Shown: positions 29,147 to 34,955, numbered from the stretch's first letter. The stretch is 64,000 nucleotides of DNA from Phycisphaerales bacterium (GCA_965228605.1 OZ245825.1:735621-799620), one strand, 5' to 3'. Notes: generated by a model from the letters alone, not told the origin. Numbers and translations are program-made.

Positions 29147-29219
29147 AGATCGGTAGCTCAATCGGCAGAGCGGCGGACTCCAAACCCGCTGGTTGAAGGT
29201 TCGACCCCTTCCCGATCTG
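29147..29219 (+). tRNA. tRNA-Trp (CCA)
   Basis: Acceptor AGATCGG/CCGATCT, D-arm GCTC-AATCGGCA-GAGC, anticodon loop CTCCAAA, T-loop TTCGACC. A1-U72 pair. Confidence 0.75.
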
Positions 29220-29240
29220 TTCCTCCTGCATGCCACGCTG

Positions 29241-29313
29241 GATCGATAGCTCAACAGGCAGAGCAGCGGCCTCTGAAGCCGAAGGTTGGAGGTTCGAACC
29301 CTTCTCGATCTGC
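29241..29313 (+). tRNA. tRNA-Gln (CTG)
   Basis: Anticodon loop CTCTGAA, T-arm GGAGG-TTCGAAC-CCTTC. G1-U72 wobble. Confidence 0.75.
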
Positions 29314-29332
29314 TTCTCCATCGCACTTCGTG

Positions 29333-29405
29333 GATCGGTAGCTCAATCGGCAGAGCGCTGGCCTGTTAAGCCGGAGGCTGGAGGTTCGAGCCCTCCCCGT
29401 TCCGT
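29333..29405 (+). tRNA. tRNA-Asn (GTT)
   Basis: Anticodon loop CTGTTAA. One U-U mismatch in the acceptor stem. Confidence 0.7.
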
Positions 29406-29427
29406 TCGCGTTGGCAACGCATCCATA

Positions 29428-29500
29428 CACCGGTAGTTCAATCGGAAGAGCACGCGTCTACGAAGCGCGGAGTTGGGGGTTCGAATCCCTCCCGGTGTGC
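29428..29500 (+). tRNA. tRNA-Arg (ACG)
   Basis: Acceptor ACACCGG/CCGGTGT (A1-U72), anticodon loop CTACGAA. Confidence 0.75.
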
Positions 29501-29521
29501 TTGCTCCTCTCTCCTCACGTG

Positions 29522-29595
29522 GCCCCATAGCTCAATCGCGCAGAGCACCCGCCTGTCCAGCGGGAGGTTGCCGGTTCAAGTCCGGTTGGGGCCGT
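29522..29595 (+). tRNA. tRNA-Asp (GTC)
   Basis: Perfect acceptor GGCCCCA/TGGGGCC, anticodon loop CTGTCCA, T-loop TTCAAGT. Confidence 0.8.
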
Positions 29596-29656
29596 TGGCA
29601 CCACTTCGTCTCTCCGTCTCTCCGGTCTCTCCGGTCGCTCCGTCTCCTCCCCATCG

Positions 29657-29731
29657 CGTCAGTAGCTCAGCGGCACCAGAGCGCCGGCACGCCATGTCGG
29701 AGGCCGCGGGTTCGAATCCCGCCTGACGCTT
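29657..29731 (+). tRNA. tRNA-like, probable tRNA-Gly (GCC) with atypical anticodon loop ACGCCAT (C at position 33)
   Basis: Good acceptor GCGTCAG/CTGACGC with U73. T-arm GCGGG-TTCGAAT-CCCGC. Anticodon stem CCGGC/GTCGG, but the loop lacks U33. Confidence 0.55.
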
Positions 29732-29740
29732 TGCGGGTCT

Positions 29741-29813
29741 GGACCGTAGCTCAGTGGCCAGAGCGCCCGCCTGATAAGCGGGAAGTCGGCGGTTCGATCC
29801 CGCCCGGTCCAAT
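29741..29813 (+). tRNA. tRNA-Ile (GAT)
   Basis: Anticodon loop CTGATAA. Acceptor TGGACCG/CGGTCCA (U1-A72). Confidence 0.7.
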
Positions 29814-29819
29814 TCGACA

Positions 29820-32579: not shown

Positions 32580-32699
32580 CCCCCCGCTCGCGCGACAGCG
32601 CGGGCGCGGGTTTCACACTGCTCAGGGAGGGATCAGGCGCGGTCACTCGACCCTCCCGCCAATCCCTGAGTAAGGCGCGCCTGATCTATGGCGGTGCTT

Positions 32700-32773
32700 G
32701 GACGCGAATGCAAAGTGGTCGAGCAACGTGGCCCTCAACCACGTCCTAGCGGGTTCGAGCCCCGCCGCGTTCA
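32700..32773 (+). tRNA. tRNA-like, probable tRNA-Glu (CTC) with atypical anticodon loop CCCTCAA (C33) and 3-bp D-stem
   Basis: Acceptor GGACGCG/CGCGTTC (G2-U71). Anticodon stem CGTGG/CCACG. T-arm GCGGG-TTCGAGC-CCCGC. Discriminator A. Confidence 0.5.
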
Positions 32774-32837
32774 CTTTCTTGTCACTCACTTCGTCTCTAC
32801 GTCTCTCAGTCTCTTCGTCTCTTCGTCTCTTCTCTTC

Positions 32838-32910
32838 CTGGGTGTAGCTCAGTCGGCAGAGCGCGTGCCTTGGGTGCACGAGGCCGGAGGTTCGAGACCT
32901 TCCACCCAGA
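32838..32910 (+). tRNA. tRNA-Pro (TGG)
   Basis: C1-G72 (typical of bacterial tRNA-Pro). Anticodon loop CTTGGGT with G37. Confidence 0.8.
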
Positions 32911-32946
32911 TTCGTTTGCGCCACTGCTCTCCGAGCAGTTGTCCCC

Positions 32947-33019
32947 CCAGCGGTAGCTCAGCAGGAAGAGCACCCGGTTCTTACCCGGAAACGCGGAGGT
33001 TCGACCCCTCCCCGCTGGA
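32947..33019 (+). tRNA. tRNA-Lys (CTT)
   Basis: Anticodon loop TTCTTAC. Acceptor CCAGCGG/CCGCTGG (C1-G72, unusual for Lys). Confidence 0.65.
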
Positions 33020-33167
33020 CTTCCTTGATCCACTCCGTCTCTCCGTCTCTCCGTCTCTCCGTCTCTTCGTTTCTCCCAGTACCCGATCGGGGTGCGCATC
33101 GCACGGGGGCTTGAGCTGGCAACCCTGGGACTCCCGGCGTGGCGCGTCGCCACGCCCCCGATCACAC

Positions 33168-33241
33168 GACTCCGTAGCCCAATCGGCAGAGGCAGCGGTC
33201 TCAGAAACCGTTCAGTGGTGGTTCGAATCCACCCGGGGTCA
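33168..33241 (+). tRNA. Class-I (short variable arm) tRNA with anticodon CAG, a Leu(CUG)-decoding anticodon on a non-Leu-type body
   Basis: Acceptor GACTCCG/CGGGGTC, A73. D-arm GCC(C)-AATCGGCAG-(A)GGC. Anticodon arm GCGGT-CTCAGAA-ACCGT. 5-nt variable loop TCAGT. T-arm GGTGG-TTCGAAT-CCACC. Flanked by perfect hairpins at 33136-33156 and 33248-33268. Confidence 0.65.
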
Positions 33242-33292
33242 TTCGCCGCGCGCACGTGTCGTGCGCGCACACCCAACCCGAAAGGAGCACTC

Positions 33293-33466
33293 ATGCAACG
33301 CCCCTCGCCCTCCACACGCCCTCCCGGCCGCCCCGTCAAGCCCGCGTTCAACCGCGCCGCGGCGTTGACGCGCGCCGCCATCCGTCGTGAGCAGACGCCC
33401 GCGCAGAAGGCGCGGGGTTCACCACACCAACACCCGGAGTATCGACATGGGCAAGAAGAACCGTAA
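33293..33466 (+). CDS. Small basic hypothetical protein (57 aa)
   Basis: Strong RBS AAAGGAG 7 nt upstream of ATG 33293. Arg/Pro-rich. Overlaps the start of the next gene. Confidence 0.35.
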   Translation: MQRPSPSTRPPGRPVKPAFNRAAALTRAAIRREQTPAQKARGSPHQHPEYRHGQEEP

Positions 33467-34786
33467 GCAGGCCGGGCGTCGCCTCGCCCAGCGCGCCTCG
33501 GTGCGCCAGCGCCTGAAGATCGAGAGGGGTGAGTTCGACCCGACGGTCGTCTGGGTCCGGGCCGCCCCCGCATCCAGCGCCCGCCCCGCAGCGCGGGCGA
33601 CGGCGCACCCGCGGTGCATGGAAGTCGCCCGGCGTGTGGGCCTGAGCGGCTCGGCGACGCGCGCATTCTGCGACCTCGCGGAGGCCGTGCGCCGCTCGAA
33701 GCTGCTCGACGCGGATGAGCGCGTGTGCGCCCACCTCCCGCGCGGCGTCGCGAACACGTACCTCGGCGGCCTCGCCGCCCTCGCGAGCCGCCACCGGCAG
33801 TGGGTCCGCGACCCCGCCGAGTGGCGGCGCGACACCCACAACGCCGAGCGCCAGTTCGCGGGCCTGGCGCGGTACCTCATGGCGCGCTATCCCGTCCCAC
33901 GCTTCCTTGATGAGGCGTGGTTCAACGACTGGTCCGCGCCGCGCCGGTGGTACGTCGCGATGGCGCAGGGGCGCTCGCTCCGCCGCATGGAGATGCCGCT
34001 GCCCATGACCCGGCGCATGCTGCACGCCTTCACGCAGGCGCCCTCGGACCTGACCATCCAGCAGGCGCTGCGCTGGTCGCAGGTCCGGGCGATGGGTGGC
34101 GATGAGCGCCTGGCGCGCCTGCTCGTGCAGACCTTCCTCGGGCGCCGCTTCGAGCACGAGGAGTTCTGGGCGGACGTCGTCCGGTTCTTCGTTGGCGAGC
34201 CGGGCCTGCCTGCGCACGAGTACGTGCAGATCGTCGACTACCTCCACCACCAACGCTTCGTCGGTGGGGGGAGGCGGTGGTCAATGGGCGTCTGGTTGAC
34301 CTTGCGCCGCCCGAGCCCAACCTCTCGATGCGTGGCCGCTCGTTGCGGGCGCTGCGTCGGGCGGTGGTGCGTTGGCACCGCGAGCTGTACGCGGTCGGGC
34401 CGCATTGCCGGTGGTCGCTCGACACCACGTGGGACCCATCGGGCGTGCGCGGCGTCGAGCAGCGCGAGGGCTCGGGCGCCAAGGCGCGCGTCTGGGCGGT
34501 CCGCGAGCTGCTCATCGGGCGCGACCTGTTCACGGAGGGCCGACGCATGCGCCATTGCGTGGGCACCTACGTGGGCGACTGCGTGAGCGGCCGGGCGGCC
34601 ATCTTCTCGATGGTCTGCTCGGACGACACGGGTGCGCTCGAGCCCGCGCTGACCATCGAGGTCGACCCGAAGACCCGCCGGGTCCTCCAGGCGCGTGGGC
34701 GGGCCAACCGCATGCCCGACGCGGTCGAGCGCCGCAGGCTCCAGGCGTGGGCCTCGATCGCGGGGCTGACCATCGCGTATTGCTGA
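33447..34786 (+). pseudogene. PcfJ-like family protein (mobile-element associated), disrupted or phase-shifted at a G6 homopolymer (34266-34271)
   Basis: RBS GGAG then ATG 33447. Coherent protein to ...IVDYLHHQRFVGG in frame 0, which then degenerates. The protein-like continuation (…VVNGRLVDLAPPEPNLSMRGRSLRAL…RMRHCVGTYVGDCVSGRAAIFSM…) is in frame 2, starting immediately after the poly-G tract. Confidence 0.5.
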
Positions 34787-34871
34787 TGGGAAGGTGTGGG
34801 ATTGGGGCGGGCGTCGGCGCGCTGCGGCGCACGTCGCCACCCCCACCCCGCGCCGCCCCCGCCTCGCTGGC

Positions 34872-34955
34872 GGGACGGTATCCAAGCGGACGAAGGAGCG
34901 CGGCTGTAAACCGCGGGCCGACAGGCCACCGCAGGTTCGAATCCTGCCCGTCCCA
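34872..34955 (+). tRNA. tRNA-Tyr (GTA), class II
   Basis: Acceptor GGGACGG/CCGTCCC. Anticodon loop CTGTAAA. Variable-arm hairpin GGCC-GACA-GGCC. T-arm GCAGG-TTCGAAT-CCTGC. Confidence 0.85.

Follow-up and report, generated by a model that had tools for sequence, protein, structure and literature searches.

The 64-kb window analysed here (a 64,000-nt stretch of a 3,900,213-bp Phycisphaerales replicon) contains 18 tRNA or tRNA-like genes predicted by ARAGORN at positions 29146–34955, all on the plus strand. [quoted passage not shown] The census agrees with the preliminary description, which had counted about 18 co-oriented genes, and 17 of the 18 pass the Rfam model RF00005 (36–71 bits; gathering score 29).

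Gene content and layout of the array

From 5' to 3', the genes are Trp, Gln, Asn, Arg-ACG, Asp, Gly-GCC, Ile-GAT, Val-TAC, His, Met and Phe, followed by Ala-TGC, 'Cys-ACA', Glu-CTC, Pro-TGG, Lys-CTT, Leu-CAG and Tyr. Seventeen amino acids are thereby represented by one tRNA each with no isoacceptor repeated, and Ser, Thr and Cys have no array tRNA. Most spacers measure 7–120 nt, the first 12 genes lie within 1.5 kb, and no terminator-like sites were found on the plus strand between array tRNAs. Of the traits attributed to an L-array (Santamaria-Gomez et al. 2021), the single orientation, operon-like spacing and non-periodic order are present; the same concept includes supernumerary genes (isodecoder redundancy) in a host whose housekeeping tRNA genes are dispersed, and a patchy distribution with horizontal spread. 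Compared with the array unit of Tran et al. 2015 (at least 20 tRNA genes per region at a density of at least 2 per kb), the density is sufficient (18 genes in 5.8 kb, 3.1 per kb), whereas the number of genes stays below the cut-off (17 by Rfam, 18 by ARAGORN).

Outside the array, the window holds three singletons that had been noted before (the first at 5002) and that we identify as Arg-TCT (5001), Leu-TAG (8262, minus strand; a normal class-II tRNA-Leu) and Ala-CGC (48904); within these 64 kb, none of them duplicates one of the 17 array anticodons. The array anticodons agree with the codon preferences of the host (CAG 0.89, GAG 0.84, AAG 0.96), the GC content shows no dip at the array, and the neighbouring genes are ordinary chromosomal ones. 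A Pfam search of ~45 window ORFs, with complete coverage of the genes called from 19.9 to 43.3 kb, yielded no integrase or transposase.

The first block (29147–30294) comprises 11 genes recognized by both ARAGORN and Rfam (54–71 bits), none of which encodes CCA: tRNA-Trp-CCA (29147–29219), tRNA-Gln-CTG (29240–29312), tRNA-Asn-GTT (29332–29404), tRNA-Arg-ACG (29427–29499), tRNA-Asp-GTC (29521–29594), tRNA-Gly-GCC (29656–29730), tRNA-Ile-GAT (29740–29812), tRNA-Val-TAC (29819–29891), tRNA-His-GTG (29944–30016, with G-1 at 29943), tRNA-Met-CAT (30032–30104) and tRNA-Phe-GAA (30221–30294). The Trp, Gln and Asn genes are mutually 80% identical, and Ile and Val share 79%. Downstream, tRNA-Ala(TGC) (30574–30644; ARAGORN; Rfam 35.9 bits) has a shortened D-arm (3-bp stem, 6-nt loop), while both programs recognize tRNA-Pro(TGG) (32838–32910), tRNA-Lys(CTT) (32947–33019), a 74-nt class-I tRNA-Leu(CAG) devoid of the long variable arm (33168–33241) and a class-II tRNA-Tyr(GTA) with A73 (34872–34955). 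The closest array or cluster copies in relatives are 89% identical for Pro and 85% for Leu. The 'tRNA-Glu(CTC)'-like gene (32700–32774; C33, A73, weak D-arm) was called by ARAGORN only and stayed unmatched by Rfam when the cut-off was relaxed to E ≤ 1; its CCCTCAA loop is found also in three related loci (L003, L008 and L039).

Many of these genes had been described as structurally deviant. This holds for the C33 loops (Gly-GCC and 'Glu-CTC'), the short D-arm, U1-A72 in Ile and the acceptor mismatches (U4-U69 in Asn, two in 'Cys-ACA'), to which C73 in Val can be added, and the odd CAG tRNA is the class-I Leu gene. Two supposedly deviant acceptors, Trp A1-U72/G73 and Pro C1-G72/A73, are instead canonical bacterial identity elements, as are His G-1/C73, Ala G3·U70/A73 and Gly U73. 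With these elements and a class-II Tyr, the array tRNAs look chargeable.

The Band-7/SPFH gene, its tRNA mimic and the leader

All three protein genes reported to be embedded in the array were recovered, each on the plus strand. A 65-aa ORF with a GGAG ribosome-binding site (30332–30529) has no family match and is called as a gene in one further locus (L050). The PcfJ-like gene (33447–34786; Pfam, E = 1e-11), previously described as disrupted, carries a frameshift in this assembly, where a G-run at 34266 differs in length by one base (G6 versus G7). The independently assembled genome of a near-identical strain (L047) has the gene intact, at 446 aa; homologs were found neither at other SPFH loci nor in viral contigs. 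The third gene encodes a 385-aa Band-7/SPFH ('slipin family') protein (31422–32579; PF01145, E = 1e-34; 100% identical to P0001), which matches no PADLOC defence model. In the structure model (pLDDT 84), three beta-repeats at the N-terminus precede an SPFH domain and a long helix, a layout that resembles the major vault protein, and Foldseek matches include stomatin (E = 2e-16), HflK/C and the major vault protein (E ~1e-11 over 430–480 columns). The likeness to the latter extends to the SPFH-like shoulder and a small structured RNA partner; in contrast, three repeats are far fewer, identity is 12–15%, the RNA is tRNA-like rather than vault-like, and cage formation is here purely hypothetical.

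The SPFH gene had been treated as incidental; in relatives, it is instead the conserved core partner of the b7a-tRNA. In the window, this element (30840–30914, plus strand; Rfam 49.5 bits) lies ~510 nt upstream of SPFH and is reported by ARAGORN as 'tRNA-Cys(ACA)'. It is homologous, by position and sequence, to elements at 26 loci, and a tRNA-like gene precedes SPFH by ~430–500 nt at 27 of the 33 loci tested. Its D and T arms are conserved, its anticodon arm is hypervariable and its outer acceptor pairs are degenerate; in the alignment, 89.9% of cells are paired (32–43% in slid controls) and covariation reaches 0.61 (0.20 in shuffles). We rejected 'Cys-ACA' as a decoding tRNA and assign it as the tRNA mimic of the Band-7/b7a-tRNA pair known from Rtc systems. 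The Rfam YrlA model gave 21–27 bits, all over ordinary tRNAs (gathering score 69), and the window genes scanned include no Ro60/TROVE protein.

The mimic is embedded in a composite leader on the plus strand. Between tRNA-Ala and the leader, a long near-perfect hairpin (30650–30745) folds at -48.2 kcal/mol (z = -4.95; equally good folds in 0 of 200 shuffles). The conserved 5' part of the Band-7 leader follows (30760–30839; CGTCCGGCGGC...GT.CCG.GAC..CGGGTTC...), with aligned blocks common to rtc-type and long-array loci. Beyond the mimic, the region 30912–31006 combines a mini tRNA-like element, consisting of a hairpin and a GGGGTTCGAATCCCC T-arm without a D-arm, with a further hairpin and a conserved AGTGAGTCGAGGG motif; the mini tRNA-like hairpin itself spans ~30912–30965 (sequence families D6 and D13). 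Of the tRNA 'fragments' mentioned previously, the one at this position is real, yet it is a conserved structured element and not debris. The spacers also carry an 8-nt tandem repeat, GTCTCTYC (plus strand; 29602–29645, 29890–29941, 31321–31354, 32779–32838 and 33031–33082), which matches the window 15 times where 0.04 matches would be expected; its copy number varies between strains, and the arrays in other genomes lack it.

Related loci and the near-identical strain

Homologs of the SPFH protein (53–69% identity) occur in more than 40 Phycisphaerae/Planctomycetota loci, and the SPFH/b7a module is widespread within one order. In 16 Phycisphaerales loci, an oppositely oriented rtcR is followed by b7a-tRNA, SPFH, 0–7 tRNAs (often at least one), rtcB and rtcA; in these rtc-type loci a sigma54 promoter (TTGGCAC-N5-TGCAT) stands ahead of the module, whose composite leader is present in the window also. 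Together with a rearranged locus (L016), 17 rtc-type loci combine RtcB with SPFH, and RtcB additionally accompanies SPFH in L042, where the match is cut off by the locus end, and in 9 long-array loci, one of them (L011) truncated. These long-array Phycisphaerales loci (8–9) carry 25–38 tRNAs around the SPFH/b7a pair, a 410-aa RtcB in 8 of 9 cases and HNH in 7 of 9 (HNH was detected in L001, L003, L006, L008, L009, L010, L021 and L034). Among their tRNAs, 36 of 299 lack U33, recurrently Gly-GCC, Glu, Val-GAC, Leu-GAG and His, and short genes account for 42 of the 48 Leu genes in arrays or clusters. Viral contigs encode more than 200 relatives of the 410-aa RtcB type, in some cases next to 13–32 tRNAs and HNH, and these viral arrays likewise show frequent C33 and short class-I Leu genes. 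Four IMG/VR contigs (L156, L126, L170 and L108) encode the same RtcB subfamily at 53–66% identity, three of them with HNH; they differ from the Phycisphaerales loci in that SPFH/b7a is missing from the 8 kb around the viral RtcB and the tRNAs are only ~62% identical.

Compared with its relatives' fuller loci, the window array is a reduced version: it covers 17 amino acids, and the 64 kb contain no RtcB of either type (tblastn) and no homolog of RtcA, RtcR or HNH. No sigma54 promoter was found at or near the array; the sole match to TGGCAC-N5-TGCA (at most one mismatch) lies far away at 1334, and in the leader alignment the promoter position is occupied by tRNA-Ala and the hairpin. The window is therefore linked to RNA repair by SPFH/b7a homology and not by local genes. 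Neither the 46 SPFH loci nor the 49 RluB loci compared are syntenic with the flanks, the nearest relatives available being only 56–69% identical in marker proteins; the same array at the same locus, which the preliminary description regarded as one mark of a core operon, was not encountered among them.

Comparison with the near-identical strain revealed a diverged tract of 3.9 kb across the array, between identical flanks (0 substitutions over ~20.7 kb). Array tRNAs differ by 0.5% and spacers by 2.9%, so that the tRNAs evolve ~6 times more slowly; SPFH shows 11 nucleotide differences, 10 synonymous and one non-synonymous (1 aa). Both the tRNAs and SPFH are under purifying selection. The 65-aa ORF does not differ although the adjoining spacers do. 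The b7a element is 30% different with its fold retained, its anticodon arm being hypervariable even among near-identical strains.

A putative spare-tRNA operon and its alternatives

The array looks like an accessory array of the L-array or phage type and not like a periodic core operon, because it has one gene per amino acid (17), no repeat pattern, C33 loops and a tRNA-Leu lacking the variable arm, and because the same hallmarks recur in the relatives' arrays and in the viral RtcB contigs. Described L-arrays (the PCC 7120 trn operon, PMC8421152 and PMC10272220; Mycobacterium arrays, PMC5966550; survey, PMC4758250) likewise consist of many co-oriented, close-set, non-periodic tRNA genes, with most amino acids represented once and protein genes interleaved. 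A neighbouring HNH homing endonuclease is frequent there but not obligatory, and the window has neither HNH nor RtcB. In Anabaena, ribosome-targeting antibiotics induce the L-array, which aids survival, and the translational-stress (TrcR) regulon includes the L-array, rtcB, HNH and slipin; in Phycisphaerales, these three protein families lie inside the arrays. An array built around a Band-7/b7a-tRNA module is not described in the L-array literature cited here. The preliminary description had favoured a mobile-element type over a core operon: the L-array hallmarks, the non-conserved position and the 3.9-kb diverged tract agree with it, whereas the lack of an integrase or transposase among the ORFs scanned, the even GC content and the host-matched anticodons do not.

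A system of Band-7, b7a-tRNA and RtcB was predicted in 2016, and the P. aeruginosa rtc locus contains an SPFH gene. The window shares with this module the SPFH gene and the tRNA-like gene directly upstream, but has no RtcB, RtcA or RtcR nearby; further differences are the inserted genuine tRNAs (0–7 in rtc-type loci, 17–38 in arrays) and the extra mini tRNA-like element of the leader. The Salmonella rsr-yrlB-yrlA-rtcB-rtcA operon, as outlined in PMC4201824 and PMC7790460, is similarly controlled by RtcR and sigma54 and encodes, in front of rtcBA, an ncRNA that mimics a tRNA and a scaffold protein associated with RNA; it has Ro60 and tRNA-like Y RNAs where the window has SPFH and no Ro60/TROVE. 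RtcR is described as activated by damaged tRNAs (PMC7790460).

That the array is a core housekeeping tRNA operon, grown by accretion, holding the sole isoacceptor copies and merely co-transcribed with SPFH, appears unlikely. A protein gene may well share such a transcript, as tufB downstream of a tRNA cluster in E. coli illustrates, and correct identity elements, purifying selection on the tRNAs, the host codon match and a window free of GC anomaly, of duplicated anticodons and, among the ORFs scanned, of mobility genes would all fit. However, tRNA genes of Planctomycetes stand alone as a rule according to the literature, the array's position is not conserved, Ser, Thr and Cys are absent, and a normal class-II Leu is already present at 8262. 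Sole copies would hardly be expected to include a tRNA with C33 for the most used Gly codon or a Leu without its variable arm, and the RtcR/sigma54 promoter ahead of SPFH-linked tRNAs in 16 relatives suggests an inducible context unsuited to them.

We regard it as very unlikely that the tRNAs are not mainly translational and serve, with the b7a-tRNA, a vault-like cage of Band-7 protein as its cargo or cofactors, or else act as nuclease decoys. Genuine tRNAs retain identity elements and codon-matched anticodons that pure decoys would not need, and a set with a single gene for each amino acid resembles one used for decoding, even though the architecture of the protein recalls the major vault protein, SPFH consistently comes with a tRNA mimic that evolves fastest in its anticodon arm, and the tRNA-like YrlA has been suggested to inhibit an anticodon nuclease competitively. 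A decaying, disused remnant of a phage- or conjugative-element-borne array is barely plausible. The PcfJ family takes its name from a conjugative-plasmid protein, its member here is frameshifted in this assembly, RtcB and HNH are missing relative to fuller arrays, and three members look degenerate ('Glu-CTC', which has no Rfam match, the short-D-arm Ala and the tRNA fragment); against decay stand the slowly evolving tRNAs, the mostly synonymous changes in SPFH, the invariant 65-aa ORF, the intact PcfJ gene of the sister strain, C33 loops conserved across genomes, and the conserved structure of the fragment and of 'Cys-ACA', itself once taken for degenerate.

If the putative spare-tRNA operon is correctly read, tRNA or translation damage, for example by anticodon nucleases of toxins, phages or the cell's own defence, would lead to its expression. 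RNase P, RNase Z and the CCA-adding enzyme would then release one presumably supernumerary tRNA for each of the 17 amino acids, tuned to the G/C-ending codons of the host. By analogy with altered phage tRNAs, C33 loops (Gly, Glu) or the missing variable arm (Leu) could make it harder for tRNA nucleases to act on them. The Band-7 protein, with its resemblance to the major vault protein, may act together with the b7a-tRNA, be it as a scaffold, as a decoy or as a sensor. The resealing of broken RNAs would subsequently fall to RtcB and RtcA in relatives, whereas in the window's lineage RtcB, RtcA, RtcR and HNH may have been lost or kept elsewhere. Our analysis suggests that these long tRNA arrays are spare parts for the repair of damaged translation machinery.

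The tRNA array and its embedded genes

ARAGORN predicted 18 tRNA genes between 29146 and 34955, all on the + strand, together with three singletons elsewhere in the window, which bears out both the co-oriented array of about 18 genes and the outlying singletons of the preliminary description. Seventeen of the 18 pass the Rfam tRNA model (36–71 bits against a gathering score of 29); for 'Glu-CTC' (32700–32774) Rfam gives no match even at E ≤ 1. CCA is not encoded in any tRNA of the window. Each of 17 amino acids is represented in the array by exactly one gene, with Ser, Thr and Cys absent. 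For Gln, Glu and Lys the array has C34 anticodons, matching the host preference for CAG (0.89), GAG (0.84) and AAG (0.96), and the GCC, ACG and GAT anticodons (Gly, Arg and Ile) match a strong host preference for GGC, CGC and ATC.

When the array tRNAs were parsed for acceptor stems, discriminator bases and loops, the deviations proposed earlier fell into two groups. A1-U72 with G73 in Trp and C1-G72 with A73 in Pro are established bacterial identity elements and no longer count as deviant; G-1 with C73 in His, G3·U70 with A73 in Ala, U73 in Gly, G73 in Asn, Asp and Gln, and the class-II form with A73 in Tyr are likewise textbook features. The shortened D-arm of Ala-TGC, the U4-U69 acceptor mismatch in Asn, U1-A72 in Ile and the C33 loops of Gly-GCC (ACGCCAT) and 'Glu-CTC' (CCCTCAA) stand as genuine oddities, as does C73 in Val; U33 is near-universal in tRNA anticodon loops. 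The 74-nt tRNA-Leu(CAG) lacks the long variable arm, but its D-arm is still of the Leu type (3-bp stem, 11-nt loop) and A73 is kept; the 84-nt singleton Leu-TAG at 8262 has the usual class-II form.

Such features recur in related Phycisphaerales loci. U33 is missing in 36 of 299 long-array tRNAs, repeatedly in Gly-GCC, Glu-CTC/TTC, Val-GAC, Leu-GAG and His-GTG, and 42 of 48 'Leu' genes in arrays or clusters are short, while the long arm is kept by all 15 Ser and 12 of 13 Tyr genes. The loss of U33 and the short Leu genes are conserved lineage traits rather than signs of decay. Mutual identity within the array reaches 80% for Trp/Gln/Asn and 79% for Ile/Val, and the window's Asn-GTT is closest to a Lys-CTT of a related locus (L039; 83%), its best Asn match being only 71%, which points to duplication and later anticodon change within these arrays. 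Among the relatives, the long arrays of five loci (L001, L003, L006, L008 and L039) contain tRNA-Ile(TAT), which is rare in bacteria, and that of L008 also has a 74-nt class-I tRNA with anticodon TCA (4141–4214; 'SeC' in ARAGORN) that looks like an opal suppressor.

The small ORF, the SPFH gene and the disrupted PcfJ-like gene described within the array are all real: a 65-aa ORF (orf65; 30332–30529), a Band-7/SPFH gene (31422–32579) and a PcfJ-like gene (33447–34786). The disruption, by contrast, comes down to a single-base difference in a G-run at 34266 (G6/G7), which may reflect a sequencing error or phase-variable switching, and an intact 446-aa protein is encoded in an independent assembly of a near-identical strain (L047). 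The PcfJ-like protein has no match in viral contigs and is absent from every other SPFH locus; it is thus specific to the window array and uninformative about the SPFH family. PADLOC defence models gave no match for SPFH, PcfJ, orf65 or the flanking proteins without a family, and NCBIfam only weak, sub-threshold HflK matches.

Several further features lie in or near the array. A 25-nt inverted repeat (29021–29045/29109–29133; 88% complementary with a 63-nt loop) stops 13 nt short of the first tRNA; it could serve the array promoter region as an operator or as a processing structure. A near-perfect 95-nt hairpin (30650–30745; −48 kcal/mol, z = −4.95) separates tRNA-Ala from the Band-7 leader; a processing site, a terminator/attenuator and a repeat element are all conceivable. 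Upstream of the array lie five co-oriented genes (23699–28404; 208, 200, 552, 141 and 431 aa), which have no homologs in any related locus and apparently form a lineage-specific operon unrelated to the array; a family (DUF1425) could be assigned solely to the 141-aa product. The 8-nt repeat GTCTCTCC of the array spacers also occurs in 4–5 tandem copies (54158–54211, −) inside mutS (51615–54728), which Pfam splits into two MutS_V stretches, as if the repeat had inserted in frame into this mismatch-repair gene. We rejected the spacer repeat (GTCTCTYC) as a conserved regulatory element because it is absent from the arrays of other genomes and also lies within mutS; it looks like a species-specific microsatellite. 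Finally, a 626-aa ORF (16502–18382, −), located where the window has its one low-GC patch (GC 0.57 at 17–18 kb), matches the fused AriAB model of the PARIS defence system (E = 2e-53) as well as PtuA, GajA and other ATPase models. AriB, the nuclease of PARIS, acts by cleaving tRNA and is defeated by a tRNA variant that a phage encodes. The proximity (11 kb) of such a tRNA-directed defence gene to a spare-tRNA array may be fortuitous, or it may not.

The SPFH gene, its tRNA mimic and their relatives

With the 385-aa SPFH protein (+ strand) as probe, relatives of 53–69% identity were found in more than 40 Phycisphaerae/Planctomycetota genomes and metagenome bins and in none of the viral contigs or phage genomes searched, so that this Band-7 partner is not obviously phage cargo. 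Its AlphaFold2 model (mean pLDDT 84) comprises three N-terminal beta-sheet repeats (residues 1–185), an SPFH domain and a long helix. A Foldseek search of the PDB matched the model to cage-forming SPFH proteins (stomatin, E = 2e-16; HflK/C) and, over the repeats and the SPFH 'shoulder', to the major vault protein (430–480 aligned columns, E about 1e-11). Sequence identity is only 12–15%, and we treat the likeness to the major vault protein as an architectural resemblance rather than as membership.

A tRNA-like gene lies 430–500 nt upstream of SPFH in 27 of 33 loci tested, its representative in the window being ARAGORN's 'tRNA-Cys(ACA)' (30840–30914). The 'anticodon' varies between genomes, and the loop sometimes has merely 6 nt. 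Across 26 aligned copies, D-arm and T-arm hardly vary, covariation is seen in the anticodon stem and in the inner acceptor pairs, and the three outer pairs of the acceptor form in just ~38–65% of sequences. Overall, 89.9% of cells pair, compared with 32–43% in controls with slid partners, and the covariation score reaches 0.61, with shuffles at 0.20, although any set of tRNAs would show cloverleaf covariation. The fixed position, degenerate acceptor, free loop and common flanking leader, in turn, indicate one homologous element. Minimum-free-energy z-scores of the single elements (this tRNA mimic, the mini element next to it and the leader block) are unremarkable (−1.2 to +0.4), and the structural case for them is thus comparative rather than thermodynamic. 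A YrlA or Y RNA identity of the element was rejected after an Rfam YrlA search.

The loci fall into three types with a common leader of roughly 450 nt. It starts with CGTCCGGCG..., continues with GT..CGCGAC..CGGGTTCT.CCGG, the tRNA-like element and a D-arm-less mini tRNA-like hairpin containing GGGGTTCGA.TCCCC, and closes with GTGGGTCGAGGG before SPFH. Type A (rtc-type; 16 loci, several on complete chromosomes) has the order divergent rtcR, tRNA-like element, SPFH, 0 to 7 tRNAs, rtcB and rtcA; the rtcR product carries RtcR and sigma54-activator domains, and the tRNA-like element is preceded at ~240 nt by a sigma54 promoter (TTGGCAC-N5-TGCAT), in a region whose place is taken in the window by the 95-nt hairpin. 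One locus (L016) has the same gene set with rtcBA and rtcR rearranged downstream of SPFH. In type B (long-array; 8–9 loci), SPFH and the tRNA-like element lie near the end of arrays of 25–38 tRNAs, most of which also contain a distinct RtcB of 410 aa (8 of 9) as well as an HNH endonuclease (7 of 9). The window itself represents type C, with 17 tRNAs, the tRNA-like element, SPFH, orf65 and PcfJ; RtcB, RtcA, RtcR and HNH are absent from its entire 64 kb, and no sigma54 promoter was found at or near the array. Downstream of SPFH, four loci (L004, 11201–12283; L008; L011; L019) encode a 360-aa protein (44–59% identity, no Pfam match) that the window lacks and that may be a further component of the module.

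In IMG/VR viral contigs, the long-array RtcB of 410 aa has over 200 relatives (53–66% identity). Among the 80 viral RtcB loci kept, 31 have at least one tRNA and five have 13–32 (L156, L126, L170, L108 and L144); three tRNA-rich loci also carry HNH. The tRNAs of the viral contigs are only ~62% identical to those of Phycisphaerales, compared with 82% between the loci L003 and L009, and the two kinds of array have short Leu genes (75–78 nt in viral contigs) and many C33 loops in common. The richest example (L156; IMGVR_UViG_3300049742_000195, 4994–9350), on a 54-kb contig of GC 0.60, has 32 co-oriented tRNA genes around an RtcB 53% identical to the Phycisphaerales array RtcB, with six C33 tRNAs and three of four Leu genes short (75–78 nt), and may belong to a phage of a high-GC planctomycete-like host.

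Divergence between closely related strains

A sister strain is represented by two contigs (L050 and L047) of another sequencing run, which span 21423–46307 of the window. The flanks (21423–28920 and 33041–46307) show zero substitutions and only two indels, the one in the G-run and another of 11 nt at 46195, whereas 28921–32816 holds all 89 mismatches and 16 gap openings. This tract, which begins just upstream of the 25-nt inverted repeat, looks like a recombinational import from a lineage diverged by ~3%. Within it, 5 of 953 nt differ in tRNA genes (0.5%), compared with 40 of 1386 nt in spacers (2.9%); SPFH differs at 11 of 1158 nt (0.95%) with one amino-acid change, and orf65 at 0 of 198 nt (0%). 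The low rate in the tRNAs and the single replacement in SPFH place both under purifying selection.

The tRNA mimic plus mini element behaves in the opposite way, with 60 of 201 nt different (30%), about 10 times the local neutral level. Its stems remain paired through compensatory changes (GACGGA/TCCGTT vs GTCGGG/CCCGA), and its loop differs between the strains in sequence and length. Eight other pairs of closely related genomes show the same pattern, with a divergence of 45% in the anticodon loop, 23% in the anticodon stem, 10% in the D-arm, 5% in the T-arm and 5–12% in the acceptor. This reverses the pattern of orthologous decoding tRNAs, and either diversifying selection or repeated cassette replacement may underlie it. 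A diversity-generating retroelement is unsupported as the cause, as no reverse-transcriptase family occurs among the genes scanned.

A proposed spare-tRNA operon around an RNA-damage module

Both components of the window are of known kinds. Long tRNA arrays are a described class (Santamaria-Gomez et al. 2021) reported in some Planctomycetes. In Anabaena PCC 7120 (PMC8421152, PMC10272220), the L-array is silent until translation is impaired, and the TrcR regulon comprises the array, rtcB, an HNH endonuclease and a slipin-family protein; the three protein genes lie elsewhere in that genome, whereas in Phycisphaerales the same protein families lie inside the arrays. [quoted passage not shown] The window's SPFH and 'Cys-ACA' fit the two defining sequence features of this module, but its two contextual features, nearby RtcB and RtcR, are missing from the window. 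A 2026 paper notes an SPFH gene within the P. aeruginosa rtc locus. In the accessible literature, which represents Burroughs and Aravind (2016) at second hand, we found no description of a physical fusion of an L-array with the Band-7/b7a-tRNA pair, of genuine tRNA genes inside the Rtc operon across a bacterial order, of the composite leader or of a hypervariable anticodon arm in a tRNA mimic.

Full-length Band-7 homologs of 33–35% identity also occur in Citrobacter freundii (L101; NZ_CP151862.1, 3966–7919) and E. coli STEC639 (L100; 6001–7925), in both followed by a nucleotidyltransferase gene. In Citrobacter the gene immediately follows a divergent rtcR, which has a RelE/XRE pair alongside, and the 448-nt leader contains a sigma54-like promoter and a T-arm-like motif; the E. 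coli locus has no rtcR. ARAGORN found no tRNA in the enterobacterial leader, in which a T-arm-like motif, GGGTTCGATTCCC, is present.

The most economical reading of the window is a reduced chromosomal spare-tRNA operon of the L-array type, built around a Band-7/b7a-tRNA RNA-damage module. The operon order in the relatives runs from damage-sensing RtcR through the tRNA mimic with its scaffold and the spare tRNAs to ligase and cyclase; this logic is documented there, and for the window we infer it from SPFH/b7a homology alone. Alternatively, the array would be a core housekeeping tRNA operon. Its GC (~0.65–0.72) is similar to that of the remaining window, and its neighbours are ordinary chromosomal genes (CTP synthase, YchF, a phospholipase-D-type protein, an RluB-like pseudouridine synthase, a CitMHS transporter and Fur). 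A tblastn comparison of the window's flank proteins with 46 SPFH loci and a metagenome scan with the RluB-like protein yielded no syntenic locus and no close-enough relative. In type A loci, the tRNAs lie behind an inducible sigma54/RtcR promoter, an arrangement unsuited to sole copies, which suggests that they are supernumerary. We consider the housekeeping explanation improbable. The array of the preliminary description is real, and there is more to it than an accessory array with cargo genes: the key to the locus is the SPFH gene, which is paired with a tRNA mimic here and in relatives.

Beyond the spare-tRNA reading, we put forward as a speculative and rather doubtful extension that the b7a-tRNA is a fast-diversifying bait or sensor for anticodon nucleases, its anticodon arm diversified by selection for mimicry of whichever tRNA is attacked, and that it acts with a vault-like Band-7 assembly, while the array would supply nuclease-insensitive replacement tRNAs (C33, arm-less Leu). 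An anticodon arm 30% diverged between strains with identical flanks is the kind of signature expected in an arms race. If this were true, long tRNA arrays, the Rtc operon and SPFH/vault-type particles would be parts of one RNA-damage response, giving L-arrays a general function and that response a prokaryotic counterpart of the vault ribonucleoprotein.

Functional data on long tRNA arrays come from one cyanobacterium only, in which translational stress induces the array with rtcB, the HNH endonuclease and slipin. In Phycisphaerales, genes of these families are physically fused with tRNAs, up to a position inside an RtcR/sigma54 RNA-repair operon, and the idea that arrays are spare tRNAs for RNA damage thereby becomes a directly testable hypothesis. 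The loci also offer natural material for two predictions: one, favoured by the strong covariation found here, that there truly is a functional tRNA mimic associated with Band-7, and the other that SPFH proteins of vault-like layout may act together with small RNAs.
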